A DNA stretch of 42,912 nt. Origin: Patescibacteria group bacterium (lineage in GTDB: Bacteria; Patescibacteriota; UBA1384; CAILIB01). The notes under the pieces were generated by a model. It did not search any database. It saw only the letters and a list, made by a program, of their open reading frames with translations, and was not told the DNA's origin. The stretch's first letter is position 1. Every line of letters begins with the position of its first letter. The position numbers and the translations under genes are program-made. The stretch spans positions 1-42,912 of the forward strand of contig JAYRWT010000072.1 in NCBI GenBank assembly GCA_041917855.1, written 5' to 3'. Below, one piece after another: positions 1,991 to 26,585 of this stretch.

Positions 1991-3457
1991 TCAGCAACAG
2001 AGGTCGAGCTCAAGTGATTCCTTACCATTCTGCTTAACAACGAGATGTGGGTACCCTCGTCGATAGAGCCCGGCTCCTTCCTGAAGGATGACGCCTCTAG
2101 CAATAAGTGCGCAGCTTATCAGGTGAACTCGTCCAACTGCTAGTTCTGCTTCTTTTGCCACTTGCTCAAAGTCAAGGTTAACCGACCTTTCTTCAGTGAG
2201 TTGCATCCAAGCCGCAGCAGCCACTGCATACTCCTGCTCAGAAAGTTGCAATCGCTTGAAGGCACCTTCTGAGATTTTCGGCTTTGATTGCACCAATTGA
2301 TCGGAATCAGCACTGACCACCTCTCTCTTGGTTGAGATCACCTGAACAATAATTGGCTTCCGAGCTTTTGGCTCTTGAACCTTTCTTTCTGGTGGAACCT
2401 TAAGCCGAGGTGCCTTGGGAGCACGAGTACGTCGTACTCGCATCTTTACCGATGGAGGAAGTCGAAGCTTAGCACGACCATACACCCGCACTTCTTCAAC
2501 AACCTTTGTTAATCGTTCAACAAAGGTCTTCCAGTCAATACCGTGTACCGCAACCAGGTCTTCACCGTCATCCTTATGCTTGTAAGGAAGTCGGATCGAC
2601 GTAATTGGGAGATCGGCACCCACACCTAGTGCAAGGCGGAGTCTCTTAATACCCATCGCAATGATCTGCCTAACTCGCTCTCTCGTTACACTGTAGTGAC
2701 GACCGATAGTCTCTAACGTCGCATCCGACGCAGAAAGCAAGATCATCTGACGTGTACGCACAGGTAGCTCATCAAGAGCAGTCTGCAGCTGACCAGTAGT
2801 CACATCAGGAGCATATTTTTCAAGTAGCTCACCAAAGGTGACTGGCTGTTTAGCGAGCATTTGCTCAAGGGCATCGGGAGTTGCTTCGTCAGCGATGAAA
2901 TCGCCGAGTTCACTTCCACCTTCAGAATCCAAGAGTATGTTACTCGATACCACAGGTGTGGGAGTGCAAAGCTCAGTGAGCTCTACTACAGCCTCTACAG
3001 GTAGACCAAGAAAAGTAGCCATCTCCTCAGTACTTGGAAAATGCCCTTCTTGTTGGAAGAATGCAATTTCAGCTTTCCTAATTTTTGCACCCATTTCACC
3101 CACATGGATGGGAATCCGAATAGGGTTTCGTGTGTTGGCGATATGCCGTGAAATCGCCTGGCGAATCCAGTAAGGTGCATACGTGCCAAAGCTAAACCCC
3201 TTAGTAGGATCGAAAAGCTCAATCGCCCTAAGTAGACCAATGGAGCCTTCTTGCACCAGTTCCTGACGAACCTCTTCATTCTCAGTCAAAGATTTTGAAA
3301 TCCGATGCGTCAGCGTCCAGTAAACAAGCCTCTGATTCATCTCGGCGATTTTGTTGCGCAGCGTTAGATCAGTTGGATTGGCCCAGTAAGCCTCCCACAA
3401 CCGAGCCTGCTCTACAGGGACGATAGTTTCCGTGGTTACGGGAGTTTCTTGTTCCAT
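1991..3457 (-). CDS. Sigma-70 family RNA polymerase sigma factor A with a C-terminal extension of about 200 aa
   Basis: Region 2 (GSIGLLRAIELFDPTKGFSFGTYAPYWIRQAISRHI), region 3 (IRIPIHVGEM) and the region 4 HTH (LETIGRHYSVTRERVRQIIAMGIKRLR) are present. They are followed by a K/R/P-rich linker and an extra domain not found in ordinary sigma factors. Confidence 0.9.
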   Translation of the reverse strand: MEQETPVTTETIVPVEQARLWEAYWANPTDLTLRNKIAEMNQRLVYWTLTHRISKSLTENEEVRQELVQEGSIGLLRAIELFDPTKGFSFGTYAPYWIRQAISRHIANTRNPIRIPIHVGEMGAKIRKAEIAFFQQEGHFPSTEEMATFLGLPVEAVVELTELCTPTPVVSSNILLDSEGGSELGDFIADEATPDALEQMLAKQPVTFGELLEKYAPDVTTGQLQTALDELPVRTRQMILLSASDATLETIGRHYSVTRERVRQIIAMGIKRLRLALGVGADLPITSIRLPYKHKDDGEDLVAVHGIDWKTFVERLTKVVEEVRVYGRAKLRLPPSVKMRVRRTRAPKAPRLKVPPERKVQEPKARKPIIVQVISTKREVVSADSDQLVQSKPKISEGAFKRLQLSEQEYAVAAAAWMQLTEERSVNLDFEQVAKEAELAVGRVHLISCALIARGVILQEGAGLYRRGYPHLVVKQNGKESLELDLCC

Positions 3458-3497: not shown

Positions 3498-3526
3498 TAT
3501 ATAGCAGAATAGAGTAGTTGTATCAA
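3498..3526 (-). promoter_or_regulatory. Candidate sigma-70 promoter for sigma factor A
   Basis: On the minus strand: TTGATA (3526-3521), a 17-nt spacer, then TATATA (3503-3498). Confidence 0.45.
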
Positions 3527-3544
3527 CCACCAATCTTTAGAGAC

Positions 3545-3572
3545 TTGAATATTTCTTGGTTTCTGGTATAGT
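3545..3572 (+). promoter_or_regulatory. Candidate sigma-70 promoter for the helicase gene
   Basis: TTGAAT (3545-3550), a 16-nt spacer, then TATAGT (3567-3572). The 5' UTR contains the hairpin GGGTTACT-ttcg-AGTAACCC. Confidence 0.5.
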
Positions 3573-3637
3573 CCTGAAAGCAAATTGAAAAGGGTTACTT
3601 TCGAGTAACCCCACCTTGAAAACACGGAATTGAAATT

Positions 3638-6298
3638 ATGAAGATACACGGCACAACTGGCAGTCTCGCCTCCGATGGCGTACTGACTCCTAAAGAGCTC
3701 TCTGAGCTTAATGAGTCACAACTCAACGATGTCAGAGCCGTACAGGCATACTGGCAACAAAACGGATATGAAGAGCCGTATCCCCTCGTCATCAAGCCAA
3801 CTGGTTACGGGAAGGGGCGTGTCATTGACGCTCTCCTCCACCCCAACCAAGAACCTGGCGTCGCCCTGCTGATCGTCGGGACAAAGAACATTCTGGTGGA
3901 ACAGAATCAGGAAGGTCTCCGTTCTCTCGTTCTCGAGGAAACTGGAGAATCCCGATTCAGCATTCTTCCAGATACCTCTGGACCCGTCATCGTCGCCACA
4001 TGGCAATCAATTGAGGCATACTGGAAGAAATTCCACACACCTCCAGAGATTGACCTGGCGATCGTCGATGAAGCGCACAATGCAGGCACGAAAAAACGTC
4101 TGCGCGCATTGAAGTGGCTACAGCCCAAGAAAGTTGTCGGTCTAACTGCTACTGCTTACCGGGCAAGTGGTGACTTACGCGCACCTGAGCACTATGGCTT
4201 TCAGCCTATTGAAGAGATCACCGACACACTCCCCGCGTGCATTGAGCGCCGCTGGCTCTCACCGCTCATGGGTCTGTGTATAGATACGGAAATTGTCCTT
4301 CCGCGAGATGTAATGACCGGAGGCACTATCTCTGGAAAGAAACTTTACCGCGAAATGCGACACCATCCAGACCTCTTTGCGGGGATTGCTCAAGAGATTA
4401 GCACACGATTCCTACCAAGTGGCATGAAGACCATTGTGGTCGTCAACCGCGTGCTGGAGGAAGCGTGCGTTATCTACAAGCACCTCGAAAACATGGGTTT
4501 CACCGTTGGGTTAGCAGTCAACCAGAGTGCTTCGCGCATGCTGGAAAACTCATACGTCACGAATGGCAGTATCGAAAGGTACAAGCTTCCTCATGACGAC
4601 CCCAACTCAATCCAGGTTCTGATCTCACCCCAGGTGATTGGCGAGGGCTTTGATGCTCCAGCAACGGAATGTGTGGTCTGGGCATCACCTACCCACTCAA
4701 GCCTGCGTTACACACAGGTTATGGGAAGAGGTGCTCGCCGCTGTCCTGGCAAGGCATACTGCTTGGTCGTCGACTTCGTCTACATGATCGAAGGCTACGG
4801 CTACAGCATGAACTTTGCTCAGTTCTTCAAGCGGAATGAGATTAAGGAGCTTGAAGGAGGATTCATGTACGTGGGTCCAACTGACGGCTCATCGCCAACA
4901 ATAATCCCTGAAACTTTCACGAGAGGTGGAAGGGTTGTTGCTATTGCTAACCTGGATAGGCCAATAGTACGCGATGCGGGTGACTGGCTCGTAAGGGGTC
5001 AAATGGCCAAAATACTAGGAAAATCTCTTTCATGGGTTACCAGTCAACTGATTGGCCTAGCAATAGAAGGTGAGGAACGACTGGACTGCATAGGCCGACC
5101 TCAACTTCATTATCCGCCAAAGACCCTCGAGGTTTTACAAGCTGTGATTTCTTCCCTACCAGATGCGGGCGGCTGGATCCCAGCCGCCAACCTTGCATCA
5201 GAAGTAGGAAAAAGTCAGAGTTGGATCACCTCAGTACTTCGCCAACTCGGGATTACCTCTGAAAAACGGGTTTCTCCCACGCGGAGGGAATACGACTATT
5301 ATCCTCCAAATGTGGTTAAAATCCTGAAAGAAGAGGCTAACCGCTATCAGCCTGCTGGTGATTGGTTAACTGCGTTCCGTATCGCTGAAAGAGTCGGAAA
5401 GACACAGAAATGGGTCATTCCAGAACTTAAGCGTCTCGGTATTAAGCCCGAACAGCGTTGGTCTTCCAACGGTCACTTGAACAGTTATTACCCACCGACA
5501 GCAGTGGATCAGCTTGAAAAAGTTATTTCCGCTGCTCCAACCCAAGGTAAGTACATCACAATCCAGAAGGCAAGCGACACCCTGGGTGTAGCAAAGCAAA
5601 GGGTTAAAAAGATCCTGGATGAACTTAAGATAAAAGGGGAAGATCGATGGGTTCAAGGACAGTTGAGGAAGCATTTCTCACCACAAGAGATTGCACAGGT
5701 GAAGGCAGCGCTGGATAGCTACCCTCTCCAAGGAAACTTCCTAACACTGGTCGAACTCGCTCGAGAAGTAGGAAAGAGCACATGCTGGTGTGAGCGAAAT
5801 CTCAAGCCACTTGGGGTAAAAACTGAAGAAAGATGGACGGATAACGGATTCAAAACCTGCTATCCACCTTCGACAGTCACATCACTTAAAGAACTCTCCA
5901 CATCAGTTCCCGAGTCAGGTGACTGGCTAACTGCGGACGAGATAAGTGTGGCAATTGGCGTCAGTCCAAGATGGGTTCAACCTCGTCTTCCCGCAGAACT
6001 CGCCGAGAAGCGACTCTCAAAGAAGAAGGGTGTCTTTACTCACTACCCACCGGAAACAATTCAGATGCTGAAGTCTGAACTAGAAAGTATTCCGGCAGCC
6101 GGTGATTGGAAAACAATCAGCGGCATGGCAACTGAACTGGGCGTTGCTCATAACTGGGTTACGGCCAGGCTCGGGTCGTACCAAGATCATTGCCAGGTTC
6201 GAAGAGCAGATGACAATCGGATGTTTAATCACTACCCGCCACATGTGCTTGAGGATCTCCGTCGCCAATGGAACGAATACAAAAAGTCCCGCAAATAG
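3638..6298 (+). CDS. SF2 (DEAH / type III restriction Res-like) helicase fused to seven tandem HTH-like repeats
   Basis: Motif I is KPTGYGKGR (GKG instead of GKT/S). Motif II is IVDEAHNAG, motif III is GLTATAY and motif VI is QVMGRGARR. The C-terminal 440 aa are repeats (see the repeat feature). Confidence 0.9.
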   Translation: MKIHGTTGSLASDGVLTPKELSELNESQLNDVRAVQAYWQQNGYEEPYPLVIKPTGYGKGRVIDALLHPNQEPGVALLIVGTKNILVEQNQEGLRSLVLEETGESRFSILPDTSGPVIVATWQSIEAYWKKFHTPPEIDLAIVDEAHNAGTKKRLRALKWLQPKKVVGLTATAYRASGDLRAPEHYGFQPIEEITDTLPACIERRWLSPLMGLCIDTEIVLPRDVMTGGTISGKKLYREMRHHPDLFAGIAQEISTRFLPSGMKTIVVVNRVLEEACVIYKHLENMGFTVGLAVNQSASRMLENSYVTNGSIERYKLPHDDPNSIQVLISPQVIGEGFDAPATECVVWASPTHSSLRYTQVMGRGARRCPGKAYCLVVDFVYMIEGYGYSMNFAQFFKRNEIKELEGGFMYVGPTDGSSPTIIPETFTRGGRVVAIANLDRPIVRDAGDWLVRGQMAKILGKSLSWVTSQLIGLAIEGEERLDCIGRPQLHYPPKTLEVLQAVISSLPDAGGWIPAANLASEVGKSQSWITSVLRQLGITSEKRVSPTRREYDYYPPNVVKILKEEANRYQPAGDWLTAFRIAERVGKTQKWVIPELKRLGIKPEQRWSSNGHLNSYYPPTAVDQLEKVISAAPTQGKYITIQKASDTLGVAKQRVKKILDELKIKGEDRWVQGQLRKHFSPQEIAQVKAALDSYPLQGNFLTLVELAREVGKSTCWCERNLKPLGVKTEERWTDNGFKTCYPPSTVTSLKELSTSVPESGDWLTADEISVAIGVSPRWVQPRLPAELAEKRLSKKKGVFTHYPPETIQMLKSELESIPAAGDWKTISGMATELGVAHNWVTARLGSYQDHCQVRRADDNRMFNHYPPHVLEDLRRQWNEYKKSRK
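4973..6295 (+). repeat. Seven tandem protein-level repeats of about 62 aa (about 186-192 nt) inside the helicase ORF
   Basis: Units start near 4973, 5162, 5354, 5540, 5726, 5912 and 6095. Consensus: aGDWlt..eiA..vGks..WV...L..LGi..E.R.......YYPP..v..Lk.....P. The units are diverged at DNA level. Confidence 0.85.
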
Positions 6299-6319: not shown

Positions 6320-6347
6320 AGCCCCGGCAGTCCCGGGGCTCTTTTTG
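6320..6347 (+). terminator. Rho-independent terminator after the helicase gene
   Basis: AGCCCCGG pairs with CCGGGGCT around a CAGTC loop, followed by CTTTTTGTT. Confidence 0.8.
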
Positions 6348-6389
6348 TTATTCATACTTTAGTAATCTTTTGGTTATGCTAAGCTATTG

Positions 6390-6520
6390 ATGTCTGGATC
6401 GATAACATGCGATACCCATAGCCACATGGCGATGGTTTGCTCTCACACAAGGGCAACCATCGACAAATAGCGGGAGCAATCCTGTTATCGGTCCAGACAA
6501 CCTAGATGGTTGTCCTTTTG
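6390..6520 (+). ncRNA. Structured cis-regulatory leader RNA, copy 1 (unclassified attenuator/riboswitch-like element)
   Basis: Outer stem of 17 bp (6391-6407/6483-6499). Inner hairpin 6430-6440/6453-6462. Terminator hairpin 6496-6502/6508-6514 plus a T tract. Segment 6505-6515 can alternatively pair with 6451-6461. Compensatory changes relative to copy 2 at 25954-26090. Confidence 0.6.
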
Positions 6521-6545
6521 TTTATATAAACCTAAAAGCACCCGT

Positions 6546-7163
6546 ATGCTTACTTTAATTATCGGGATTCTCTGGACTCTCTTGATCGTTGGACTTATTA
6601 GCCCAAGCTTCTTTAGTAAGATGTTTAAGGGAGAATATACCCGCAAGAAGATTGTCCTTATCTTAGTTCCCGCAATGGTTGTAATAGGAATTATCGGAGC
6701 TGCCCTTAGTCCAAAGGAAACAACAACAGACCAAGTAACGCAAACTTCCACAACGCCAACTCCAACCTCCACACCGGTTAACGTGCTTTTTGATCTATCT
6801 AACGCAAAAGGTAAAACACCTGAAGAAATCGTAGCAGCATTGGGTGAGCCAACGAAAAAATTTGAACCCAACAACACGCAGAAAGAACTAGCACAAAGTG
6901 GACAATTTAAGTATGACGTTGACTATGAATGGCACAAAGAAGACCAAATTCTCTATATGAGTTTTGACTATACAACGAAGGTTGTTAGAGATTTCTTTCT
7001 TGATTGCAGAGGTGATGGTTACGAAGGTAGCTGTAAGAATACTGAGCAAGTAATCAATCGCCTTAAAGCTCAATTGAACGCAGATACCAGCGGTATGAGA
7101 GTAGAAGCTGTCAGGGTCCTCAAAGACCCCACTAGTATTACTGGTATTAAGCTGATTCCGTAG
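6546..7163 (+). CDS. Membrane-anchored secreted protein, unknown function
   Basis: The ATG at 6546 lies downstream of the leader terminator, whereas the track start at 6510 lies inside the terminator hairpin. It has two N-terminal hydrophobic segments, a T/P-rich linker and a globular C-terminal domain. Confidence 0.7.
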   Translation: MLTLIIGILWTLLIVGLISPSFFSKMFKGEYTRKKIVLILVPAMVVIGIIGAALSPKETTTDQVTQTSTTPTPTSTPVNVLFDLSNAKGKTPEEIVAALGEPTKKFEPNNTQKELAQSGQFKYDVDYEWHKEDQILYMSFDYTTKVVRDFFLDCRGDGYEGSCKNTEQVINRLKAQLNADTSGMRVEAVRVLKDPTSITGIKLIP

Positions 7164-7701
7164 GTTCCTTAATTCCTAAAAGCTGACTCAACAACCGGCC
7201 ATTTTGCTCCAGCTGCTCTTTCACCTCAGCTTTAGCCTCAATATCGCGGAGGAACAGCTGATCCTTCGGTCGCATGAGGTTCATATCCATGCGCTCTAGA
7301 ATGAACTTAGCGGCGGCAAGATCCCCTGCCGCAACAGCCGAAGCCAGTAGCCCATAAGAAGCTGCAACAAGACTGTCTTTCTCCGCTGTTACCTCCACAC
7401 CAACACGCTCGGGCGGCAACTTATACTCCCCATCCCGCCGCGACAGGTGGTAGCGAATCGCCCACGACTCCCCTTGGTCAATCTTCTGCAGCAGACGAGA
7501 ACGCGCCAAATCGTTCACTTCTTGGGTGCCGAGCATATGTGCCTCATCTGCCGCTTCCTTAAATGTCGGGTCGTCCTTGTACCAGCGGTAGTACTGGGCT
7601 TTGGACAGACCCGCCCGCTTGCATGCCGCACTCACAATCCCGTGCTTCGAGAGCTCCTCAAGCAGCGCTTTGGTCACCGATTTGCGCTGCCGCTGGTTCA
7701 T
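7147..7701 (-). CDS. Terminase small subunit-like HTH protein A
   Basis: N-terminal HTH (GIVSAACKRAGLSKAQYYRWYKDDPTFKEA) of the type seen in phage TerS / phBC6A51-type HTH proteins. Its start overlaps the upstream stop (ATGA). Paralog of 28502-28945. Confidence 0.6.
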   Translation of the reverse strand: MNQRQRKSVTKALLEELSKHGIVSAACKRAGLSKAQYYRWYKDDPTFKEAADEAHMLGTQEVNDLARSRLLQKIDQGESWAIRYHLSRRDGEYKLPPERVGVEVTAEKDSLVAASYGLLASAVAAGDLAAAKFILERMDMNLMRPKDQLFLRDIEAKAEVKEQLEQNGRLLSQLLGIKEPTESA

Positions 7702-11925: not shown

Positions 11926-12018
11926 TTTCGCGGTTTCTACGCCAGGTTCGGAGGTAAACCGTAAGACTTAGAAAACAGAGCAAGTATCTAAAGAAGCGCC
12001 AAATCACCAAAACCAATC

Positions 12019-12078
12019 AAGACCGTCACGCTCTATTTATGAAGAATGGTATCGAACCTTCTCCTTTACTCTGAAACA
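12019..12078. repeat. Intergenic repeat copy c2 (tRNA-fragment-like)
   Basis: AAGACCGTCACGCTCTAT...GGTATCGAACCTTCTCCTTTACTCTGAAAC. It shares the 17-nt core with c3 and about 60 nt with c1. Confidence 0.7.
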
Positions 12079-12217: not shown

Positions 12218-12817
12218 ATGCAAATAGAAATCGAGGCCAAGTTTACCGATATCAATCCCGCTGACCTACGGGAAAAACTCAATAGCGTAGGCGCAAGCCT
12301 TGTCCATGAAGAGCGTCTCATGCGTCGTAAGAATTACGACTACCCAGACCATAGCTTAGAGGCAAAAGGTGGATGGATTCGCGTACGAGACGAAGGTGAT
12401 CAGGTGACGCTTGCTTACAAACAACTTAATGACCGGACTCTCCACGGCACTCAGGAAGTGTCGCTTGTCGTGGAAGATTTTGACCGCATGGGACTATTTC
12501 TTACATCGGTAGGGTTCGAACTTACCGCCTATCAAGAAACCAAGCGCGAGAAGTGGATGCTCCATGATGTTGAAATAACCATCGACACCTGGCCATGGAT
12601 CCCTTCATTTTGCGAACTAGAGGGGCCAAGTGAAGATAAGGTAAAAGCTGTAGCGGCTACTTTAGGCTTTGTGTGGCAAAATGCCATGCATGGGAGCGTA
12701 GAGAACGTCTACGTCATGCACTATGCTGTAACTGAACTTGAGGTATGCAGCTGGCCAAAGATTACTTTTGATCCCGTGCCTACTGAAGTTGAGGCAAAGC
12801 GAATTACCCGATCTTAG
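12218..12817 (+). CDS. CYTH-domain protein (class IV adenylate cyclase / triphosphate tunnel metalloenzyme family)
   Basis: N-terminal EIEAKF (ExExK) signature and overall CyaB/CYTH-like length and pattern. Confidence 0.8.
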   Translation: MQIEIEAKFTDINPADLREKLNSVGASLVHEERLMRRKNYDYPDHSLEAKGGWIRVRDEGDQVTLAYKQLNDRTLHGTQEVSLVVEDFDRMGLFLTSVGFELTAYQETKREKWMLHDVEITIDTWPWIPSFCELEGPSEDKVKAVAATLGFVWQNAMHGSVENVYVMHYAVTELEVCSWPKITFDPVPTEVEAKRITRS

Positions 12818-12900
12818 CTCATATAAGGTTCTATCCGATACTTTAAGGCTTGGAATACGCTTTATATATCTATGGAAGCCCCAAACCCGTCAATTCAGTC

Positions 12901-12917
12901 AAGACCGTCACGCTCTA
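12901..12917. repeat. Intergenic repeat copy c3 (17-nt core only)
   Basis: AAGACCGTCACGCTCTA is identical to the c2 core. On the minus strand the flank reads like a degenerate tRNA 5' half (GCGGAAC..GGTAGAGCGTGACGGTCTTGA). Confidence 0.65.
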
Positions 12918-13903: not shown

Positions 13904-16039
13904 TTAAATCGCCGCTAAGCTGCGCTCAGACCGTTTCAGAAGCACGGCATTGGTCGCCACGATAATCGATGAGACGCTCATCAGCAGGGCCGCAACCTCA
14001 GGCCTGAGCATGACGCCGAAGTTCGGGTACAGGAGGCCCGCGGCGATAGGGATAGCCAGCAAATTATAAATGGAGGCCCAGAAGAGGTTCTGCTTCATCT
14101 TGGCAACTGTCGCTTTTGACAGCACGATGGCCCGCAGGATGTCCTTTGGATCGGATTTCATCAGTACCACCTTGGCCGTCTCGATGGCCACGTCAGTTCC
14201 CGCTCCGATGGCGATGCCAATATTGGCCTGGGCCAAGGCCGGGGCATCGTTTACCCCGTCGCCCACCATGGCCACGAACTTACCCTCGTCCTGCAGCTTC
14301 TTCACGTAGCTCGCCTTATCGGCAGGCATTACCTCTGCAAATACACGCTTAATCCCCAGTTCCTTAGCTACCCGATCTGCTGTCTTCTGGTTGTCGCCGG
14401 TAATCATGGCCGTCTCAATACCCAGCTCGTGCAGCTTGGCGATAGCCTCCTTTGCTGACGGCTTTATGGGGTCGGACGCCCCCACTACTCCGGCAGCGTT
14501 CCCCTCAACCGCGAGGATCATCAGCGTCTCACCCTTTCCAAGCAGCTCATTGATACTGCTTTCCAGCTCCGAGATCTCCACACCGTTTTCTTTCATGAGA
14601 CGGGTAGTGCCGATAAGGACGGATCGGCCGTCCACTACCGCCTTCACGCCTAGCCCCGAGAGATTCTCAAAGTTTTCAACACTCTCGTAGAGGTCCAAGC
14701 GCCGCCGCTCTACTTCTTCCAGCACCGCTTTACTCAGTGGATGCCCCGACTTGGCCTCGGCGCCTCCCACCAGCCTCAAAAGTTCGTTGTCCGTGGTCTT
14801 GCCAACCGAGAATACGCTCGTGACCTTGGGCTTGCCTTCGGTCAGCGTCCCGGTTTTGTCGAGCACCACGGCCTGGACTTTTGAAACTTGCTCAAGGGTT
14901 GGCGCGTCTTTAATTAAGATGTTGTGCTTGGCTCCGATTCCCGTCCCAACTGCCACAGCAGTCGGGGTTGCCAACCCCAAGGCATCCGGACAGGCGATGA
15001 CCACGGTAGCAATGGCAAAGGTAAGCGCGGTCATTACCTCCGCTCCTGAGAAATACCAGATGAGGAAGGTAAGGAGTCCGCCTCCTACCGCCACGATCAC
15101 TAGGTATTTTGCCCATTGGTCGGCCAGTTTCTGTCCCGGCGCTTTGGAATTCTGGGCGGTTTCCACCATCTTCACGATCTGGGCGAGCGCCGTGTCTTCC
15201 CCGACCTTGGTCGCCTTGAATGTGACCGAACCGGTCTGGTTGATCGATCCTCCGGTTACCGAATCACCTGGTTTCTTAGCAACGGGCACAGACTCGCCGG
15301 TTACCAACGACTCATCAATCGAGGTCTCGCCTTCAATGATTTCTCCGTCCACCGGCACCTTATCTCCAGGCTTGAGGATTACGTGATCGCCAAGCAGTAC
15401 CTCGGCGGTAGGAACCATGATTTCTTTGCCGTCCCTATGCACCCTGGCCTGAGGCGGCACCAAGGAAAAGAGTGCCTGTAGGGCGTCGGTAGTTCCCCGG
15501 CGCGACTTCATCTCCATCCAGTGGCCAAAGAGCACGAAGGTAGTCAGCATGGCCGCCGCCTCGTAGTAGGACTCCTCGCTTCCCAAAAGCGTCAGCACGA
15601 TGCTGAAGAAGTACGCCGCCGAGATTCCTACCGCAATCAGCACCGACATGTTGAGGTTCTTTTCCTTGAGCGCGAAATAGCTCGAATACAGGAAAAGCCA
15701 GCCGGCATAGAAGAACACCGGGGTAGCGAGTAAAAAGAGGAGCCAGGGCACCGGAATGGGACTTGGCAGCTGCAGGCCCAGGAGCATCGAGCCCATAGGC
15801 GAGTACAAAACGATTGGAACGGTCAGGATAAGCGAGAAAAAGAACTTGCGGCGAATATCCTCTTCCATCATTTTGGCCATTTCTCTCCCCGCCAAACCGG
15901 TATGGTCCATCCCCATGGTCATGGTCATGCTCGCCTTGAACCTGCCCCACCAACCGGTGGGAGTCTCCATATGGTGATGGTGCCCCGAATGGGAAGGCTC
16001 TACCTCATGATGATGCTGGCTGTGATCGTGGTGCTCCAT
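13904..16039 (-). CDS. copB: P1B-type heavy-metal ATPase, CopB-like, with a His-rich N-terminus and a CPD transmembrane motif
   Basis: The N-terminus is MEHHDHSQHHHEVEPSHSGHHHH. DKTGTLT, GDGVNDAPAL and TGES are present. The TM6 motif reads ACPDALGLATP (codons at 14984-14992). GGAGGA precedes the ATG. Confidence 0.9.
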   Translation of the reverse strand: MEHHDHSQHHHEVEPSHSGHHHHMETPTGWWGRFKASMTMTMGMDHTGLAGREMAKMMEEDIRRKFFFSLILTVPIVLYSPMGSMLLGLQLPSPIPVPWLLFLLATPVFFYAGWLFLYSSYFALKEKNLNMSVLIAVGISAAYFFSIVLTLLGSEESYYEAAAMLTTFVLFGHWMEMKSRRGTTDALQALFSLVPPQARVHRDGKEIMVPTAEVLLGDHVILKPGDKVPVDGEIIEGETSIDESLVTGESVPVAKKPGDSVTGGSINQTGSVTFKATKVGEDTALAQIVKMVETAQNSKAPGQKLADQWAKYLVIVAVGGGLLTFLIWYFSGAEVMTALTFAIATVVIACPDALGLATPTAVAVGTGIGAKHNILIKDAPTLEQVSKVQAVVLDKTGTLTEGKPKVTSVFSVGKTTDNELLRLVGGAEAKSGHPLSKAVLEEVERRRLDLYESVENFENLSGLGVKAVVDGRSVLIGTTRLMKENGVEISELESSINELLGKGETLMILAVEGNAAGVVGASDPIKPSAKEAIAKLHELGIETAMITGDNQKTADRVAKELGIKRVFAEVMPADKASYVKKLQDEGKFVAMVGDGVNDAPALAQANIGIAIGAGTDVAIETAKVVLMKSDPKDILRAIVLSKATVAKMKQNLFWASIYNLLAIPIAAGLLYPNFGVMLRPEVAALLMSVSSIIVATNAVLLKRSERSLAAI

Positions 16040-16047
16040 TCATCCTC

Positions 16048-16425
16048 CTAGTAACCCCACTGGTTCTGCCATTCGCGCATCTGGGAGATTTCCTTCTGCT
16101 GAGCAGAAATAATGTCGTCAGCCATCTTCTTGATCTCGTCGTGCTTGGCGTTCTTCTGGGCTTCCTTGGCCATCTCGACCGCACCCTGGTGGTGCTCGAT
16201 CATGGAGGAGAGGAAGGACTTGTCGAATTCATCACCAGACTTGCCCTTGAGCGTACCCATCATGTCGCCCATGCTCATGTCCATATGGCTGCCAGCGTTG
16301 CCACCGTTTTCATGCATCCCCATCATTCCCATCATGCCGTTATGGTTGAGTGAGGTCACGGCCAGGGTCAGGATGACGCCAGCCAGTAAGCCGATGATTC
16401 CGTAGAGTGCAGATTCCTTGTTCAT
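16048..16425 (-). CDS. DUF305-family protein with an N-terminal TM helix and a Met/His-rich segment
   Basis: The C-terminal IEHHQGAVEMAK...DIISAQQKEI pattern is DUF305-like. The segment MMGMMGMHENGGNAGSHMDMSMGDMMG suggests Cu(I) binding. Confidence 0.75.
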   Translation of the reverse strand: MNKESALYGIIGLLAGVILTLAVTSLNHNGMMGMMGMHENGGNAGSHMDMSMGDMMGTLKGKSGDEFDKSFLSSMIEHHQGAVEMAKEAQKNAKHDEIKKMADDIISAQQKEISQMREWQNQWGY

Positions 16426-16492
16426 GGTAATTTTTATTAGTTGTAATGCTAGTTCCAGTATACGCCGTTGGCCTGAAGCTGCTCCAGTGGCC

Positions 16493-17176
16493 CTACTTCG
16501 CCAGTTCCGCCTCGATAGCGTCGCGCAGCCCCTGGGTATACTTCACCTGCTTCCCGTTCACATAGAATGACGGTGTTCCTGTCACTCCCAAGGCCTCACC
16601 GTCGGCCAAATCACGGGAGAAGGTGTCGTTGTACCGGTTCTCATCGATTGCTTTTCGAACCTCATCCGCATTAATGCCCAACTCGCGGGCATATCCCACA
16701 ATGATATCTTCAGCCTGCTGCTTGGTTTTAGGGGTTGGCCCATCGGCACTCCACTGCTCCTGGTTCTCGAACAGCTTGTGGTGCATCTCCCAGAACTTGC
16801 CCTGCTTGCCGGCCTCTTCGGCGGCATTGTGCGCAATCTGGGCGTTCTTGTGGCTTGGAAGCGGGAAATTGCGGAAGACGAACTTCACGCTTTTGTCCTT
16901 ATACTCCTCCTCGATTTGTGTCACCTGGCCAAAGGCGAACTTGCAGGCCGGACACTGGTAATCGGCAAATTCAACTACCGTCACCTTGGCGTCTTTCGGC
17001 CCCAGGAAGTAACTGTCATCTCGCACTAACTGCCCGGCGTCGGCAAGGTCGGTAGCCGCTGAAGCCGGTCCGCTCGGATTGCTCTTTTCTGACTTAGCGG
17101 CGAACATAACCGCTCCGCCGATGAGAAGGACACAAAGTGCCCCGACTATACTTACTATCTTAACTTCGTTTGTCAT
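16493..17176 (-). CDS. DsbA/BdbD-type thiol:disulfide oxidoreductase (membrane-anchored)
   Basis: Thioredoxin-fold CPAC active site (YQCPACKF) and an N-terminal anchor. Confidence 0.85.
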   Translation of the reverse strand: MTNEVKIVSIVGALCVLLIGGAVMFAAKSEKSNPSGPASAATDLADAGQLVRDDSYFLGPKDAKVTVVEFADYQCPACKFAFGQVTQIEEEYKDKSVKFVFRNFPLPSHKNAQIAHNAAEEAGKQGKFWEMHHKLFENQEQWSADGPTPKTKQQAEDIIVGYARELGINADEVRKAIDENRYNDTFSRDLADGEALGVTGTPSFYVNGKQVKYTQGLRDAIEAELAK

Positions 17177-17615
17177 ATGGTTTGTTTAGGTAAATTGATA
17201 AGCCCATGGCGACTGTAATGAAGACGAAGGCCACGAGCGAGAGGAATGGAATGCTGATAAAGCCGAGCCACTCAATATATTTGGTCGTGCAGGACACCCC
17301 GAGGCTGCAGGGCGAGAGGGATTCAGTAATTACGCCCCAGGTCAGCAGGTTCTGGTACAGGGCAATGCCGGTACCGACAACTCCGAGTGGCAGAACATAG
17401 TACGGAAGGCGCTGGTCCCTCAGGATAATTCCTACCGCCATAATGAAGACGATCGGGTACATGAAGATCCGCTGCCACCAGCAGAGCGTACAGGGCGGGA
17501 AGTGCAAGATCTCGCTGAAATAAAGGCTCCCCAGCATCGAGGCGATGGCCGTAGCCCAGGAAAGGTACAGCAGCACCTTGATGACTAGCGCTTTGTTCTT
17601 CAGAATCCACTCCAC
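17160..17615 (-). CDS. DsbB/BdbC-type disulfide bond formation protein
   Basis: CTLCWWQR motif in the first loop, four TM helices and a second Cys pair (SPCSLGVSC). Confidence 0.85.
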   Translation of the reverse strand: MEWILKNKALVIKVLLYLSWATAIASMLGSLYFSEILHFPPCTLCWWQRIFMYPIVFIMAVGIILRDQRLPYYVLPLGVVGTGIALYQNLLTWGVITESLSPCSLGVSCTTKYIEWLGFISIPFLSLVAFVFITVAMGLSIYLNKPYDKRS

Positions 17616-17833
17616 TACGCCTCCTCTGGAAGATGGACGGTGTATTCCCCCAGCTCTTCGACCTCTTTCTTGAACGTCTGCCAGTCAACCGACCCGTCGT
17701 GTTCTATGAGGGTATTTCCACTCTCAAAGTCGACGGTGATCGATTGGATACCATGTTGCTCGCCTCCTACTTCTTCGATAAGCATCTTGCAGGCCTTGCA
17801 GTGGGTTCCTTGGATATGCAGTTCAGTTTTCAT
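17615..17833 (-). CDS. copZ: Heavy-metal-associated (HMA) copper chaperone, CopZ-like
   Basis: A 72-aa ferredoxin-like HMA domain with a GTHCKAC metal-binding loop. Confidence 0.8.
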   Translation of the reverse strand: MKTELHIQGTHCKACKMLIEEVGGEQHGIQSITVDFESGNTLIEHDGSVDWQTFKKEVEELGEYTVHLPEEA

Positions 17834-17843
17834 GGGTAATAAG

Positions 17844-19679
17844 TTAGCTAATGGTAATGTCGGCGACCGGTACGCCCATTGGGCAGGTAAGGTTCAGCTC
17901 GCCGGTCTTGGTCGGGGTGAAGTTGATCTGGTTCTTGCCCATCTTCAGCCGCTGGCCGATGTCGTAGTCAGAACCAACCACCGTATCCATGCAGCCGCTT
18001 ACGTCGGCCTGCACGTCAATCTCCAGGATGACGGGAATGCCTTTCTTAACCTTGAAGGTATTCGGGTAGAAGCCCCGCTCGTAAGTCACGGTCATGTTCA
18101 GCTTCTGCACCTCGCCGCTCGCTGCCGCTGGTGCGCTTGAGGCGGAAGGTAGGGGGGAAGCCGGGGTGTAATTCAGAGGAGTGGCACTAGCTGCCGCATC
18201 CGTGGTAGCCACGACGGTGATAGCAGCCCCTCTTGTGGTCATTCCCATCGAGCAGCTAAACGGGAAAGTACCTGTCTTATCAGGAGTAAACTCGACCGTC
18301 TTCGTGCCGCTTCGAGGCAGGACAGCAGAGATGTCAAACCCATCAGCTACCAGGCTTCTGGCACATCCCGCTGCCCCACTCCCCTCGATTCGCCACTCCA
18401 CCGGTACTCCTTGCCGGACGGTAAACTTGGCCGGTTCGTACTGGTAACCCTTCACCTTCATGGTGATGACCTGCTTGCCATTCTCCATTGGTGGAAGATC
18501 GGAAGCAGCAGTAGCCTGCTCCGAAGCCGTAGTGTTGGCCAGAATCGTTCCCAGGCTAATATTCGTACCAGCCAGAGCGAGTCCGTTCCCGATATTCGAG
18601 AGCCCAAGCAGCACCACGACCACCCCTGCGAAGCGGAAGAAATGCCGCTGAGTCGCACCCTTCAGGAAACTGGACAGCGCCGAAAGCGACATCAGGGCCG
18701 GAAGCGTCCCGAGGGAGAAGAAGAACATGGTCAGCGCTCCCACCGTAAAGCTACCCTGCGAAAGCACGTACAACTGCAGGGCCTGGGTAAAGCCGCAGGG
18801 CAGGAAGAAGGTGGCAGCCCCCAGGCCGAACGGTGCCGCCGGATGGTCGGAATTGCTGGAAGCGTCATGGACCCGGTGGGCGATGAACTTAGGCATCTTA
18901 GGCTGGAAACGGCGGAGCTGCGGGAAGATATTCAGAAGCTGGAAGCCCAGGAACACCATGATAAGGCTGGCGGCGATGGTCATCACTCCAGTCATGCGGG
19001 TGGAGAGGGTAAAGACCGATCCTACCGCCCCCACCAATCCTCCGAAAACGGTGTAGCCGATCACCCGACCAGCATTGAAGTAGAGGTGCGGCCGAAACTT
19101 CTTTATCCCCTCCATCTCGGGATGGGCTTCGGCGTAGCGTCCGGCTACGGCGAGCAGCAGGCCGCCAGTCACGGCAATACAGCTGGAAACCGCCGCCACC
19201 AAACCGATAAGAAACACAAAGCCGTAACTCATGTTCTCGCCCACGCTCAAGCCCTCAGGAATGAGCCTGAACTTGCTCAGGATTAGGTATGCACCCATCA
19301 CGATCAGGAATACCCAGAAGGTTTCCTTGTAGTCCTGGGCAGTCGTTTTGTGGACAGCCGGTTTCTTCTCACCTGGCCTCTGCTGGAAGGACGTTACGGT
19401 ATACTCGGTACCCTCTAACGCTTCCTGGAGCTGGTTAAGGTGCGGACGGCGGGAGTACCCCACGTCCACCCTGCCGGTAGCATGGTTGACCTTTACCGAA
19501 TCGATTCCCTCGATTTTCTTGAACTTTCTCTCAATGAGCACCTCGCAGCTGGCGCAGTGGGTACCGTGAACGGAAACGCACATCGTCCCGGGGCTTTCCT
19601 CCTGGGAGTAGTAGGCGCTTGGTTCCTGGTAGCTGACCTGCTGTCTGTGCTTTTTCTTGTGTCGATGTTTCTTGCTCAT
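17844..19679 (-). CDS. Fusion protein: HMA domain, TauE/SafE- or DsbD_2-type membrane domain, and two cupredoxin-like domains
   Basis: HMA loop GTHCASCE, about 7 TM helices, and two C-terminal repeats ending in SCSMGM and TCPMGV. The ATG at 19679 (MSKKHRHKKKH) is preferred over the TTG at 19706. Confidence 0.8.
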   Translation of the reverse strand: MSKKHRHKKKHRQQVSYQEPSAYYSQEESPGTMCVSVHGTHCASCEVLIERKFKKIEGIDSVKVNHATGRVDVGYSRRPHLNQLQEALEGTEYTVTSFQQRPGEKKPAVHKTTAQDYKETFWVFLIVMGAYLILSKFRLIPEGLSVGENMSYGFVFLIGLVAAVSSCIAVTGGLLLAVAGRYAEAHPEMEGIKKFRPHLYFNAGRVIGYTVFGGLVGAVGSVFTLSTRMTGVMTIAASLIMVFLGFQLLNIFPQLRRFQPKMPKFIAHRVHDASSNSDHPAAPFGLGAATFFLPCGFTQALQLYVLSQGSFTVGALTMFFFSLGTLPALMSLSALSSFLKGATQRHFFRFAGVVVVLLGLSNIGNGLALAGTNISLGTILANTTASEQATAASDLPPMENGKQVITMKVKGYQYEPAKFTVRQGVPVEWRIEGSGAAGCARSLVADGFDISAVLPRSGTKTVEFTPDKTGTFPFSCSMGMTTRGAAITVVATTDAAASATPLNYTPASPLPSASSAPAAASGEVQKLNMTVTYERGFYPNTFKVKKGIPVILEIDVQADVSGCMDTVVGSDYDIGQRLKMGKNQINFTPTKTGELNLTCPMGVPVADITIS

Positions 19680-19745
19680 AAAAATTACGCTTAATGAAAT
19701 TAGCAAAAGGAGCCTCTTACCAAAGAGGTCTCAGTCTGTAATTCC

Positions 19746-20186
19746 TTAAGCGTAGAGCAGCGGCTGAGCCTTGCCGGCCGCTAAGAAGAGAGCGAAGTAG
19801 TCGTGAAGGTTATCGTCAGGCGGATCCTTGCTTCCGTGAACGAAGCGAACATACAGCAGCGACTTGATATCAAACGGTGCGAAGATGAGCGTCGCAACCA
19901 AGATAGCGGCAAATAGTGCCAACATTCCCAGGATCGAACTGCTGCCTGGGATTCCGGTAAATGTACTCTGCCACCAGGCCAGATGCTCCCCTACTTGCAT
20001 TGGACAGATCCGAGGCGCTCCGCCGTGGGCCTCGTGGCTTGCGGTAGATGCCATCGAGCAGGCCACTTCGACATTGGCCATTCCTCCCATGTCCAGGCTG
20101 ACCAGGCCAACCAGCAGGAAAGCTGCCGCCGTGAATGCGGCAAGCGACCTTACGAACTTAAGTTTACTGGCAATGCGGTTAAACAT
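19746..20186 (-). CDS. Hypothetical membrane protein with a Cys/His/Met-rich loop
   Basis: Two TM segments flank ACSMASTASHEAHGGAPRICPMQ. It lies within the copper cluster. Confidence 0.6.
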   Translation of the reverse strand: MFNRIASKLKFVRSLAAFTAAAFLLVGLVSLDMGGMANVEVACSMASTASHEAHGGAPRICPMQVGEHLAWWQSTFTGIPGSSSILGMLALFAAILVATLIFAPFDIKSLLYVRFVHGSKDPPDDNLHDYFALFLAAGKAQPLLYA

Positions 20187-20224
20187 GGAAAGTATTTTGT
20201 TGGCCCTATTATACCACCTTTTGC

Positions 20225-20443
20225 CTAGGCCTGCTTCTTTTCCGTATCCGAGTGGCAGTCTTCGTGACCGTTTTTATTCATGAAAACCATTCCTATGAGC
20301 ATCGAGACCGGACAGATGGCTAGCACCGCAAAGGGAGCGAGAGCCACGATGCCGCTCCGCACCCCTGGGAATAGAAGGTAGCCGAGGGCAAGCGCAAGGC
20401 CTGCCCCGATAGCTACTTTGATCATGGTTTTTGGACTGCACAT
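20225..20443 (-). CDS. Small membrane protein, DUF2933-like
   Basis: A 72-aa protein with two TM helices, an internal CP motif and a His/Cys tail (GHEDCHSD), as recalled for DUF2933 proteins in metal-resistance loci. Confidence 0.55.
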   Translation of the reverse strand: MCSPKTMIKVAIGAGLALALGYLLFPGVRSGIVALAPFAVLAICPVSMLIGMVFMNKNGHEDCHSDTEKKQA

Positions 20444-20453
20444 ATACCCTCCT

Positions 20454-23400
20454 TTACTTAGCTAATGCGGTTTGCTGCGGCATCTGGAAGCCAGTCCCCA
20501 CGAAGTGCATGGAATCCAGGTCGGTCTTAGTCTCGGGAAGCACTCCAGCCACGATTACGTCCTGGCCGAAGAACCCTCGGATGATGTCGCCCTCATTTTT
20601 GAACAGCTTCTCATCCTGCATCATCTTCGCCTCCTTGGCTCCGATGTAGACCGGTACCAGGCGGGCCGATCCGACCGCTACGGGCTGGAGTCCGGCTTCG
20701 CTTACGTTTCCGGCGAGCTTCTCGGGAACGTTGCCGCCATTCACGATGTAGAACAGCTTGGGAACGCCCTGGTTAAGCAGTACCGGCAGATCGGCAGACG
20801 CCTGTATCTTCCCGTAGGTGGACTTACCCATGATGTGGTAGCTGTCGATCTCGGTTCCCGTAGGCTCCAGGATGCCGACCACCTTCATGCTAGGTACTCC
20901 GAAGAAGTTCTGGATGGTATCGCCAGGCCCCTTGATAAGGCCTTCCTCTATCATCATGGCCGCTTCAGATGAACCGATTATCATTTCGTCGTTATCAGAA
21001 AGCTTGGTCGTGCCCTCCTTCGCCTTCATGATCTGGGTATCGATCGTTTCCGTACCAAGGAACAGCTTAGGAGTGCCTTCGGCGAACGCGACTTTGCTCT
21101 GGCCAGCAGTAAGGTAGTTGCCCGCCTGCCTAATGGTCTTTGCAGAAGCAACCACAGTACCCATACCTCCCTCATCCATGCGGGAGCTGAACCGGGCGAA
21201 CTCGAAGAACATGCCGGAGAAGGCAATCACCATTACGAGCGGGGCAAGCTGGGATACCCAGTTGCGGCGTCCCGGCCGGTAATAGCGGAGGGTCAGTGAG
21301 TTGGCCACCACCGAGATCGAAGAAAGGGCCATGGCCAGTCCTGCCAGCTCCGGCTTCAATACCAGACCGAAGGCGGCAAACACGCGGGCGGCAATCGGAA
21401 TGCCCATCACGTTGTAGAAGAGGGCGAAGAACATGTTCTGCTTGATCTTGGCCATCGTCTCTTTAGACAGCCGAATGGCGTTCACCACGTCGTTCAGATC
21501 GTTCTTGATTATGACGATTCCGCCGGCCTCCATGGCTACGTCGGTACCTGAGCCCATGGCAATGCCGAGGTCTGCTTGGGCAAGGGCTGGAGCATCATTA
21601 ATGCCGTCCCCTACCATGGCGACTTTCTTACCTGCAGCCTGTAGTTTCTTGACTTCGTTGGCCTTGTCCTCAGGCAGCACTTCGGCCAGGACGTTCCTGA
21701 TGCCGACTTGCGAGGCAATGGCCTCGGCCGTGCGCCGGTTGTCTCCGGTAATCATATAAACCTCGATTCCCATCTTCTGGAGCTTGGCTACCGCCTGGGC
21801 AGACGTATCCTTTACCGTATCGGCTACAGCCACCACCCCGATCACCTCTTCTTTCGTAGAGAGGATCATGGCGGTCTTGCCCTGCTCCTCAAGCCGGGTC
21901 ACCTTGCGGGAGATGCGGCTCAGGTCATGGTTCAACACCTCCTCGGCAAGCCTGCGGTTGCCAAAGTAATAGAGAGTTCCGTTTACAATGCCTTGCACGC
22001 CATGGCCGGGTATTGCCTGGAAGTCGGTAACCTCATCAAGCGTTACGCCTTCTTCGCCCGCATAGGAATAGATGGCTTCGGCCAAAGGGTGCTCGGACGA
22101 CTTTTCAAGCGAAGCGGCAACCGTGAGCACCTCGTCCTCGTCGCTTGATCCGAAGCTTAGGATATCGGTCACCTCGGGCTTTCCCTTGGTGATGGTGCCG
22201 GTCTTGTCGAATATGACGGCGTTCACCCGGTAGGCAGTTTCCAGCGGCTCGCCTCCTTTTACCAAGATGCCGTGCTCAGCACCTTTACCCGTGCCTACCA
22301 TGATGGCAGTAGGAGTGGCCAAGCCTAGGGCGCAAGGGCAGGCGATCACGATCACCGCCGTGAAGGCCATGAGGGCGAATCCAATACTTGCGCCTAGCAG
22401 GAAGTACCATACTAGGAAGGTAAGGATGGCTACGCCGATAACGGCCGGGACGAACCAGGAGGATATCTTGTCGGCAAATGCCTGGATTGGTGCCTTTGAT
22501 CCCTGGGCATCCTCAATCAGCCGAATGATCTGGGCCAGAGCGGTTTCCGACCCTACCCGGGTTGCCCGGAATTCGAAGCTTCCCGTCTTGTTTATGGTCG
22601 CACCGGTTACGGTGTCGCCTTCCCGCTTCTCAACGGGCATGGACTCGCCGGTAAGCATGGACTCGTCCACGGCCGATGAACCCTTGGTGACCACGCCGTC
22701 TACCGGCACCTTTTCCCCTGGCCGTACCAACACGATGTCCCCCTCGACTACCTCTTCAACCGAGATGTCGTAGGTTTCGCCATCCCGGATAACCCGGGCC
22801 GTCTTGGCTTGCAGTCCCATCAGCCGCTTGATGGCGTCAGAGGTGCGGGCCTTGGCCTTCAGCTCGAGCAGCTTACCAAGCAGCACGAAGGTAATGAGGA
22901 AGGCGGCCGTTTCGAAATAGATTTCCGGAATCTTCCCGGCAAGCCCTATCAAGGAGTTATATTTGAACACGTAGGCCAAGAAGTTGAAGAGACTGTAAAA
23001 GTAGGCGGTGGATGTTCCAATGGCGATTAAAGAGTCCATGTTAAAGGTACGCATCCGCAGTGCCGACCACATGCCCTTGTAGAATCCCACCCCGGCAATA
23101 AATTGGACTGGCGTCGCAAGGATCAGGGAGATTATCGCGAAGTACGGAGCAATCGAGGCGGTACCGGGTAACCACTTAAAGAAGTCGGTAAACATGAAGT
23201 ACAGCATCGGCAGAGAGAAGAGGAAACTGAACCAGAACTTGCCCTGCAGCTTCTTCAGTTCGAATGCTCGCTTACGGTTTTCGAATTCGCTATCCTTTTC
23301 CTCAAGTACTGCAGCCTTGTAGCCAGCTTTCTGAACAGCGGCAGTAAGGTCGCTTAACGAAGCAGAATTCTCATCAAAGATTACGGCAGCCTTCTCGGCG

Positions 23401-24026
23401 GCAAAGTTAACGTTGGCCTGAGAAACCCCTGGCACCTTTTTCAGACCACGCTCAATGAGCGTGGCACAGGAAGAGCAGTGCATTCCAGATAATGAGAGTG
23501 CAACTTTACGGCGAGGATTCTTTTCTTCCGAATCGTTATCTTCGTGGGTGACCACATGGCCTGCGCCCTCTTCTTTTTGGGGCGCACCGAGTGAGCGCTC
23601 AATAGCCGTAGGAACACTAAGCAGCTGTACTAGCCGATCCAATACCCCTTTAGCGGAAGACGGCTGAATATCCAGACTCTTCTCGTTCTTTATTTCCCCA
23701 TCAAAATAGGGGTTTCCTCCCGCGTCGGTTCGGACAACCCCCTTTGCTTCAATGGTAGATTCAAGCCGGATCGACACCTGCTCGGCAGGTTCTTCGGTAT
23801 GTTGCTCAACGGACTGCACCTTGGCCGTGTAGCCGGTATCCTTGATGGCGGCCAAAACTTCTTTTTCCGAGGTGAGGTCTGAGTTTACGCTGACGGTTCC
23901 CGATCCTCCGGGAACGTCGACAGTAACTTCCCCTACTCCGGGAAGCTCGGAGAGGCTGCGCTTGATGAGCTTCTCGCAGGAGGAGCAGTGCATGCCTTCG
24001 ATTGATAATGTAAGGGTCTGGGTCAT
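20454..24026 (-). CDS. copA: Copper-translocating P1B-1 ATPase CopA with two N-terminal HMA domains and a C-terminal extension of about 270 aa
   Basis: GMHCSSCE occurs twice. [17 protein letters not shown] and [10 protein letters not shown] are present. After the last canonical TM there is an extra TM and a duplicated soluble module (20457-21269). Confidence 0.93.
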
Positions 24027-25948: not shown

Positions 25949-25953
25949 ACAAG

Positions 25954-26578: not shown

Positions 26579-26585
26579 TCAAACG

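Follow-up and report, generated by a model that had tools for sequence, protein, structure and literature searches.

Two segments of about 130 nt in a 42,912-nt stretch of a contig from a Patescibacteria group bacterium (hereafter the window, i.e., the whole stretch of DNA analyzed) each precede a gene for a putative membrane-anchored protein, and an earlier note on this DNA had read them as two copies of a structured leader RNA with mutually exclusive pairings and a built-in terminator. The locus therefore raises the questions of whether such an RNA exists, which of its pairings are conserved, and whether it corresponds to a riboswitch, an attenuator, a small RNA or an element acting as DNA.

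Copy 1 (6391-6519) and copy 2 (25954-26089), both on the + strand, are genuine members of an unclassified structured RNA of ~130 nt. Both fold more stably than their dinucleotide shuffles (z = -5.1; 0 of 200 shuffles as stable), and the likeness between them begins at the -10 box and ends at the U-run, with unrelated flanks on either side. Every pairing listed in the earlier note was found in place when both sequences were read. In copy 1, the outer stem (P1, 6391-6407/6483-6499) has 17 bp with one G-U wobble (T6399-G6491), the A:B hairpin (6430-6440/6453-6462) has 10 bp and one bulge, and segment C (6505-6515), a near copy of A, pairs with B over 12 contiguous bp according to duplexfold; the D:C hairpin was called as an intrinsic terminator by the terminator scan in both copies. 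Copy 2 displays the same architecture (P1 at 25954-25969/26052-26067, terminator at 26064-26083), and the compensatory differences noticed between the two copies are real and extend to 31 further homologues. That first reading nevertheless overlooked the helix formed by segments A and E (P3), the extension of B:C into GGGC:GUCC and into A-run:U-run pairing, the promoter, and the diversity of the downstream genes.

Four covarying helices were recognized, namely P1, P3 (A:E), the A:B hairpin and the long-range B:C. Segment A can pair with B or E, B with A or C, and C with B or D; A:B excludes both A:E and B:C, and D:C uses the same C as B:C, while D overlaps the last 3-4 bp of P1. The unpaired linkers are A-rich and variable in length and sequence. 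The features of copy 1 are located as follows:

6377-6385, + strand: promoter, an extended -10 (TG-C-TAAGCT) ending 6 nt 5' of GTCT (sequence reading)
6391-6407, + strand: 5' strand of P1, partner 6483-6499 (sequence and fold)
6416-6435, + strand: P2, a variable small hairpin between P1 and A (constrained fold)
6430-6444, + strand: segment A, of which A1 (CGATGG) pairs with B, and 6434-6444 (GGTTTGCTCTC) with E (folds and alignment)
6450-6462, + strand: segment B (AGGGCAACCATCG), partner A in the hairpin or C in the long-range pseudoknot
6472-6482, + strand: segment E (GGGAGCAATCC), 3' strand of P3, partner 6434-6444 (sequence reading)
6483-6499, + strand: 3' strand of P1, whose terminal GACA (4 nt) doubles as the start of D (sequence and fold)
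6496-6514, + strand: local hairpin D:C (GACAACC/GGTTGTC; 6496-6502/6508-6514; terminator scan)
6505-6523, + strand: segment C and U-run (GATGGTTGTCC-TTTTGTTT), 3' strand of B:C and expected 3' end of the short RNA
6546-7163, + strand: downstream ORF of 205 aa with an N-terminal TM segment, its ATG 26 nt past the U-run

P2 is poorly conserved, with 49% of its cells paired in alignment columns and a lineage-variable length and sequence. B:C of copy 1 reaches -20.3 kcal/mol over 12 bp (16 bp with flanks), and D:C, followed by CTTTTGTTT, -10.5 kcal/mol; the downstream ORF gave no Pfam match. The corresponding features of copy 2, together with the neighboring recombinase gene, are:

24451-25857, - strand: large serine recombinase, divergent from copy 2 (Pfam Resolvase, Recombinase and Zn_ribbon_recom)
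25921-25948, + strand: promoter TTGATA, 16-nt spacer, TG-n-TACGAT (promoter scan)
25954-25969, + strand: 5' strand of P1, partner 26052-26067 (sequence, fold and alignment)
25998-26011, + strand: segment A (GAGTGGTTGTAGCC), of which 25998-26006 pairs with B and 26002-26011 with E (folds)
26012-26029, + strand: A-run and segment B (AAAAAC-GGGCAACCACTC)
26041-26050, + strand: segment E (GGCTACAACC), 3' strand of P3 (alignment and fold)
26052-26067, + strand: 3' strand of P1 (sequence and fold)
26064-26083, + strand: local hairpin D:C (terminator scan; -10.8 kcal/mol)
26073-26093, + strand: segment C and U-run (GAGTGGTTGTCC-TTTTTATTT; duplex energies)
26120-26578, + strand: downstream ORF of 152 aa with a TM anchor, 30 nt past the U-run (PHROG)

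Here the A-run and B pair with C and the U-run over 17 bp (-24.2 kcal/mol), and the PHROG matches of the downstream ORF are superinfection-exclusion (Sie-like) morons.

Homologues were collected by complementary searches. A structural pattern (P1 base, gap, P1 base) retrieved three loci in two MAGs, labeled Patescibacteria group and 'bacterium ADurb.Bin212'; a covariance model recovered a divergent copy beside a terminase homologue in viral contig L009; and a degenerate pattern run on the metagenome collection returned 52 loci, 30 of them real by the covariance model and the remaining 22 false positives in coding DNA. A pattern independent of P1 contributed one extra homologue, L085. Overall, 33 distinct sequences from Patescibacteria-type MAGs, metagenomes and viral contigs were integrated in alignments A4 (31 sequences) and A5. 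Scanning viral contigs for GGTCCAGACAACCTAGA returned coding-sequence false positives only, queries of viral contigs with the recombinase and the ParB-methylase gave nothing useful, and the terminase-linked viral loci other than L009 were without the RNA.

The RNA family is apparently undescribed. Consistent with the earlier note, in which no riboswitch class could be assigned, Rfam 15 gave no match at gathering across the whole window; at E<=10, copy 1 had chance-level matches only, located elsewhere within its 300-nt slice, and copy 2 a single match of 14 bits against a gathering score of 65.6. Across 13 homologous loci, Rfam recognized tRNAs only, BLASTN against GenBank phages and PLSDB plasmids found no similar DNA, and a literature search found no description of the RNA. 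The large terminase (TerL) encoded in the window is less than 28% identical to terminases of cultured phages.

The covariation proposed from two copies held up in the larger alignment. In A4, the structure comprising P1, P2, P3 and B:C has 90% of its cells paired vs 80% in shuffles, with double changes in 22 pairs, and none of 500 column shuffles reached the observed values; sliding the partners by 1-3 columns lowers pairing from 90% to 29-42%. P1 ranges from 15 to 20 bp across the family. Its basal 9 bp are 100% paired in A4, including an R:Y switch (16 A-U to 15 G-C), although sequence conservation at this base is partly circular, given that 31 of the 33 homologues were recruited with it fixed; L085, recruited independently of P1, retains GTCTAGAC with the U-G wobble moved by one position. 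The distal 6 bp of P1 are 84% paired and all covary. P3, in which A (GGTTGnnCC) pairs with E (GGnnCAACC), is 90% paired with double changes in 7 of 8 pairs.

Far from being a minor competitor of the terminator, B:C is the strongest and best-conserved helix. The 9 bp examined first are 96% paired in A4 columns, and alignment-free analysis found 9-13 contiguous bp in all 31 A4 sequences (at least 10 in 30 of them), with energies of -14 to -24 kcal/mol, all but one being -19.7 or stronger; when the flanks are included (A-run before B with U-run after C), the helix spans 9-20 bp, with a mean of 16. Native partners also form stronger duplexes than foreign ones in B:C (-19.9 vs -12.1 kcal/mol), A:E (-17.5 vs -10.6 kcal/mol) and A:B (-17.1 vs -11.3 kcal/mol), and since partner swapping weakens A:B, this hairpin is under selection as well. 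The 78% pairing of A:B in fixed A4 columns is an under-count, as the hairpin uses lineage-specific registers, e.g., UUCGA/UCGAA in the L044 group and UUAUUGGG/CCCUGAUAA in the L038 group. D:C is 98% paired in A4 columns. Most sequences give it ~-10 to -11 kcal/mol, but the L035 group has a weak version (-5.6), and in L039 and L071 (-3.0) a 1-nt deletion has abolished the hairpin and spared both the U-run and a B:C helix of 12 bp. Furthermore, A1, B and C change together across at least 7 lineage-specific sets (GAGU, CGAU, UGCG, CCGG and GCGU, among others). As in an attenuator or expression platform, A:B, A:E, B:C and D:C are conserved and covarying helices that share strands, the terminator strand included.

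Such symmetry could in principle be built at the DNA level, by an iteron or operator array of GGTTGY repeats, a recombinase att site, a pac site or a single-strand origin. Five GGTTGY/RCAACC motifs fall within 100 bp, the segment often adjoins a recombinase gene, and true tandem repeats of TTGGTTGTC exist in L078 and L081, two viral contigs that are unrelated. The non-Watson-Crick cells are, however, strand-specific, with G-U far exceeding A-C (48:7 in P1, 29:1 in B:C), which identifies the + strand as the folded molecule. Similarity resides in pair-specific partners (A with E, B with C) rather than in one shared motif, no enrichment of the P1 motif was observed in the rest of the window, promoter and U-run occupy fixed positions, and tRNA genes are found beyond the recombinase, where the att site is accordingly inferred. 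Taken together, folding of the + strand, the promoter and the U-run indicate RNA and not duplex DNA, and the iteron or att reading, largely refuted by the strand-specific G-U bias and the pair-specific similarity, is in our view very improbable. The repeats of L078 (~7048-7181) and L081 (~3518-3687) are AT-rich, with many TTGGTTGTC and GACAACCAAG units in both orientations and T-run ends; being iteron- or operator-like and only weak matches to the model, they were not accepted as members of the RNA family.

The limits of the RNA are those expected of a transcription unit. A TAnnnT hexamer precedes GTCT in 33/33 homologues, by 6 nt in 31 cases and 7 nt in 2, with a TG extension in 18; the -35 is weak (a mean of 3.1 matches out of 6), and a consensus promoter scan passed copy 2 and failed copy 1. 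Because this sigma-70-type -10 box stands at a fixed distance from P1, the predicted transcript start is the 5' base of P1. At the other end, segment C is followed by a U-run in all 33 homologues, where an intrinsic terminator is predicted. B:C also abuts the U-run and has a matching upstream A-run, i.e., the A-tract/stem/U-tract form of a terminator. A same-strand ORF follows the RNA in 29/29 loci, starting 5-49 nt (median 26) past the U-run in 26 of them, a distance that leaves no room for a separate promoter. A separate strong intrinsic terminator at 6320-6340 (AGCCCCGG..CCGGGGCT and a T-run) ends the helicase gene; since it lies just 5' of the copy 1 promoter, copy 1 would be insulated from upstream transcription. 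The possibility of a leader peptide was also considered, as an ATG or GTG at the start of P1 opens ORFs of 27 and 18 codons in copies 1 and 2, respectively; it was rejected for lack of conservation, many homologues having no start codon there.

Two alternative folds follow from these pairings. When B and C are blocked, free folding gives P1, P2 and P3 in every sequence printed. The nested P1 and P3 plus the B:C duplex average -66.7 kcal/mol before a pseudoknot penalty of several kcal/mol, and the best pseudoknot-free fold (P1 with A:B) averages -54.7 kcal/mol; in view of that penalty, the two folds are not far apart in energy. According to this modeling, the conserved ground-state fold is predicted to consist of P1, P3 and the long B:C pseudoknot.

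On these grounds we propose, with about an even chance of being right, that the RNA is a mobile-element leader acting as a conformational attenuator and also yielding a stable pseudoknotted small RNA. Each copy would be a self-contained transcription unit of a prophage-like or satellite-like element, in which a sigma-70-type promoter fires at the first base of the ~130-nt RNA, the U-run marks its end and a moron gene follows directly. Fold I, the first to form during transcription, would combine P1 with the A:B hairpin, sequestering B and the A-run and leaving C with D only, itself partly locked in P1. Segment E and the closure of P1 would then displace B from A, giving Fold II, the presumed ground state, in which P1 stacks on P3 and the freed B pairs over 12-18 bp with C and the U-run. 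We infer that Fold II terminates efficiently, setting free a highly stable RNA in which neither end is unpaired, and that a persisting Fold I, where both partners of C are occupied, would allow RNA polymerase to read through into the cargo gene. The leader would thus be a kinetic or factor-controlled attenuator setting the share of a strong constitutive promoter's output that reaches the accessory genes.

The assignment of B:C follows from general knowledge of intrinsic termination, where a stable helix reaching the U-tract should promote release, and from a single recent lineage (L039 and L071), which lost D:C and kept B:C and the U-run; we therefore think that B:C is the terminating helix and not an antiterminator. 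The reverse assignment made in the earlier note, with D:C as terminator and B:C as antiterminator, is possible. Termination might also be constitutive with simple leakage, A:B being only a folding intermediate; that C has two possible partners is compatible with this. Of the two functions suggested by the earlier note, the attenuator that we favor is the best fit to the data, and the riboswitch is not, given the unrelated downstream genes and the lack of an evident conserved pocket.

The mobile-element setting claimed for the two copies was confirmed and applies to the family, as the surrounding elements carry serine recombinases, small and large terminases (TerS/TerL) and ParB-methylases. The commonest neighbor of the RNA is a large serine recombinase, found within about 5 kb in 13 loci; with one exception it is upstream and divergent, and it lies at 0.1-3 kb in nearly all; no protein family co-occurred universally with the RNA in the neighbor survey of the loci. 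A tRNA gene lies just past the recombinase in L002 (5983-6054), and others were detected near the recombinase in L023 (9282-9353), L047 (1899-1970), L064 (11591-11661) and L072 (914-985), which suggests integration beside tRNA genes and would make the RNA the first inward-facing unit after the integrase.

The window itself contains two related mobile elements, with recombinases at 583-1890 and 24451-25857, each also carrying a ParB-methylase, a TerS-like gene and a sigma-70-family gene. In the second, element B (24451-37945), these are joined by TerL, by an S24 repressor-like gene and by a pair of CD-NTase and Cap15 genes. A scan of the large ORFs revealed neither capsid nor tail genes in the window, nor a portal gene in element B; with an integrase, TerS, TerL, methylases and a repressor-like gene in their absence, element B looks like a phage satellite or prophage remnant. 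Within 31843-34033, downstream of the S24 (LexA/CI-like) peptidase gene, the CD-NTase-like gene (SMODS/NTP_transf_2) and the gene for the Cap15 effector make up a compact CBASS-type defence pair within the element. The sigma-70-family genes are located at 1991-3457 (- strand, 488 aa) and 35260-36276 (+ strand, 338 aa), the longer protein having ~200 extra C-terminal residues without a Pfam match. Between the elements, a metal-resistance block (13904-24026) encodes two P-type ATPases (one with two HMA domains), a DsbD_2-cupredoxin-HMA fusion and a DsbA-like protein. Two direct repeats were also observed: one of 74 nt (11962-12035 and 12844-12917, 72% identical, shared end CAAGACCGTCACGCTCTA) around a CYTH-domain gene (12218-12817), which could be an insertion scar or cassette boundary, and a near-perfect one of 29 nt (37421-37449 and 38299-38327; GGCGATTAGCTCCTTGTGGCTGCCAG..) bracketing the ORF at 37532-37945 at the right edge of element B, which may be an att-type duplication.

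The ORFs downstream of the RNA encode unrelated small accessory proteins across loci: Sie-like (copy 2), Zn-ribbon with DUF4352, RDD, TM2, DUF805, GIY-YIG, bPH_2, SHOCT, ankyrin with DnaJ, and proteins of no known family. They do not form the coherent gene set of a metabolite riboswitch, which is not supported. Under a broader proposal, a small molecule or second messenger would stabilize one fold (e.g., the three-way junction with the pseudoknot) and control read-through as a new riboswitch class. The leader position, a pseudoknot sharing the terminator strand, near-isoenergetic folds, strong covariation and the lack of a match to any known class agree with it, and heterogeneous genes are indeed controlled by some signal-sensing riboswitches, such as the c-di-GMP classes. 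Conversely, the controlled genes share no pathway, the A-rich linkers, variable in length and sequence, offer no evident conserved pocket, P1 at 15-20 bp is far longer than ligand-gated P1 stems, and the family is confined to mobile elements; a new riboswitch class is thus quite doubtful.

The same exchange of cargo bears on whether the RNA acts mainly as a product in its own right, i.e., a stable small RNA, encoded by the mobile element, that acts in trans or binds protein and whose terminator leakage is exploited by the cargo. Conservation of the RNA contrasts with free exchange of the gene behind it, and the predicted ground state, where P1 encloses the 5' end and pairing of A-run and U-run the 3' U-tail, is typical of long-lived products. 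It might serve as a decoy or sponge, or as an immunity or incompatibility RNA resembling P4 CI or P1/P7 c4, with B targeting A and C in transcripts still being made, either by its own element or by a related one that is entering the cell. The A/B/C layout mirrors that of P4 seqA, CI (seqB) and seqC and also resembles IsrK (PMC4825925), and co-resident copies differ in the variable part of A/B/C, both in the window (CGAT vs GAGT) and between L002 and L003 of one MAG. However, extra A- or C-like targets elsewhere in the window occur at chance level, cargo ORFs only 5-49 nt downstream in nearly all loci argue for functional coupling, the downstream genes are accessory, whereas in P4 and P1 they serve lysis or replication, and Rfam C4 and IsrK are not matched. 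Overall, we regard a predominantly small-RNA function as the main rival of the attenuator, a real but minority possibility.

A more far-reaching extension of the attenuator, speculative and rather unlikely, would be a new sensor class or a self-acting immunity RNA of prophages and satellites, in which a ligand, an infection cue or the RNA itself, once accumulated, flips A:B to A:E/B:C and so gates an interchangeable membrane/defence cargo hotspot, via a pseudoknot doubling as terminator, in ultra-small Patescibacteria-type hosts.

These findings add a well-supported unclassified family of structured RNAs, with 33 members, four covarying helices and a pseudoknot; to our knowledge, almost no regulatory RNA has been described from candidate-phyla-radiation-type bacteria and their mobile elements. 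The architecture is unusual, since two upstream segments can pair with the 3' half of the terminator, the long-range pairing being terminator-stem-like, and it provides a clean test case for co-transcriptional folding. As the RNA sits before freely exchanged accessory genes beside the integrase, it may mark and control a cargo/defence hotspot of these elements, and the covariance model could be used to locate such hotspots.

Regarding known systems, type III toxin-antitoxin (ToxI-like) and AbiF-RCd22-like loci have tandem repeats or a conserved motif upstream of one toxin family (PMC12373285). Such an identity was rejected for the present RNA, a single unit with no tandem repeat and with downstream proteins of many families. 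In the countertranscript-driven attenuation of plasmid rep leaders (pT181, pIP501/pAMbeta1), as proposed here, alternative folds of a mobile-element leader decide termination ahead of an ORF. The plasmid systems depend on an antisense transcript of the other strand, for which promoter and terminator scans at both copies showed no conserved signals; the gene controlled here is also not a replication gene. The predicted combination of promoter, short terminated leader and downstream genes dependent on read-through also recalls lambda PR'-tR' ('6S') and StxS, where a constitutive phage promoter produces a short terminated leader that accumulates in lysogens. There, the Q protein acts at the promoter to drive read-through, and the leader lacks a conserved pseudoknot structure; a Q-like gene was not found here. 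The likeness to terminator/antiterminator leaders and to pseudoknot riboswitches of the ZTP, fluoride, preQ1-II and SAM-II types lies in a 5' leader with exclusive helices, a pseudoknot strand common to the expression platform and an intrinsic terminator just before the ORF. Unlike in those types, the pseudoknot uses the 3' half of the terminator instead of the 5' half, the long-range helix has the form of a terminator, there is no evident pocket, the genes are heterogeneous and P1 is very long.

By analogy, the nearest conceptual relatives would be the immunity RNAs P4 CI and P1 c4 and the IsrK RNA of Gifsy-1. Immunity RNAs of this type act in trans on nascent transcripts, undergo processing by RNase P and control lytic or replication genes, with P4 and P1 using a translation block and Rho. 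On P4/P1-type leaders, seqA, seqB and seqC lie on one transcript and seqB is complementary to sites both upstream and downstream of it, and IsrK is an sRNA whose short form is made at a terminator that lets part of the transcription continue into the genes beyond (PMC4825925). The present RNA has no sequence or structure match to C4 or IsrK. It precedes variable accessory genes instead of the replication or antirepressor genes of P4/P1, which argues against strict equivalence with P4 CI and P1 c4. Like P4 CI, P1/P7 c4 (Rfam C4, RF01695) and IsrK, it is encoded by prophages or satellites in the promoter-proximal leader of its own operon. A1, B and C change together across lineages, as the matching sequences do between heteroimmune elements of the P4/P1 type, and differ between the two copies in the window. 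As in P4 CI and P1 c4, an internal sequence is complementary to one upstream and one downstream site, and its choice of partner would decide transcription; unlike in P4/P1, all the pairings are possible in cis, as a pseudoknot ending in an intrinsic terminator, and, unlike those of P4, P1 and Gifsy-1, the hosts are uncultivated bacteria of the Patescibacteria type.
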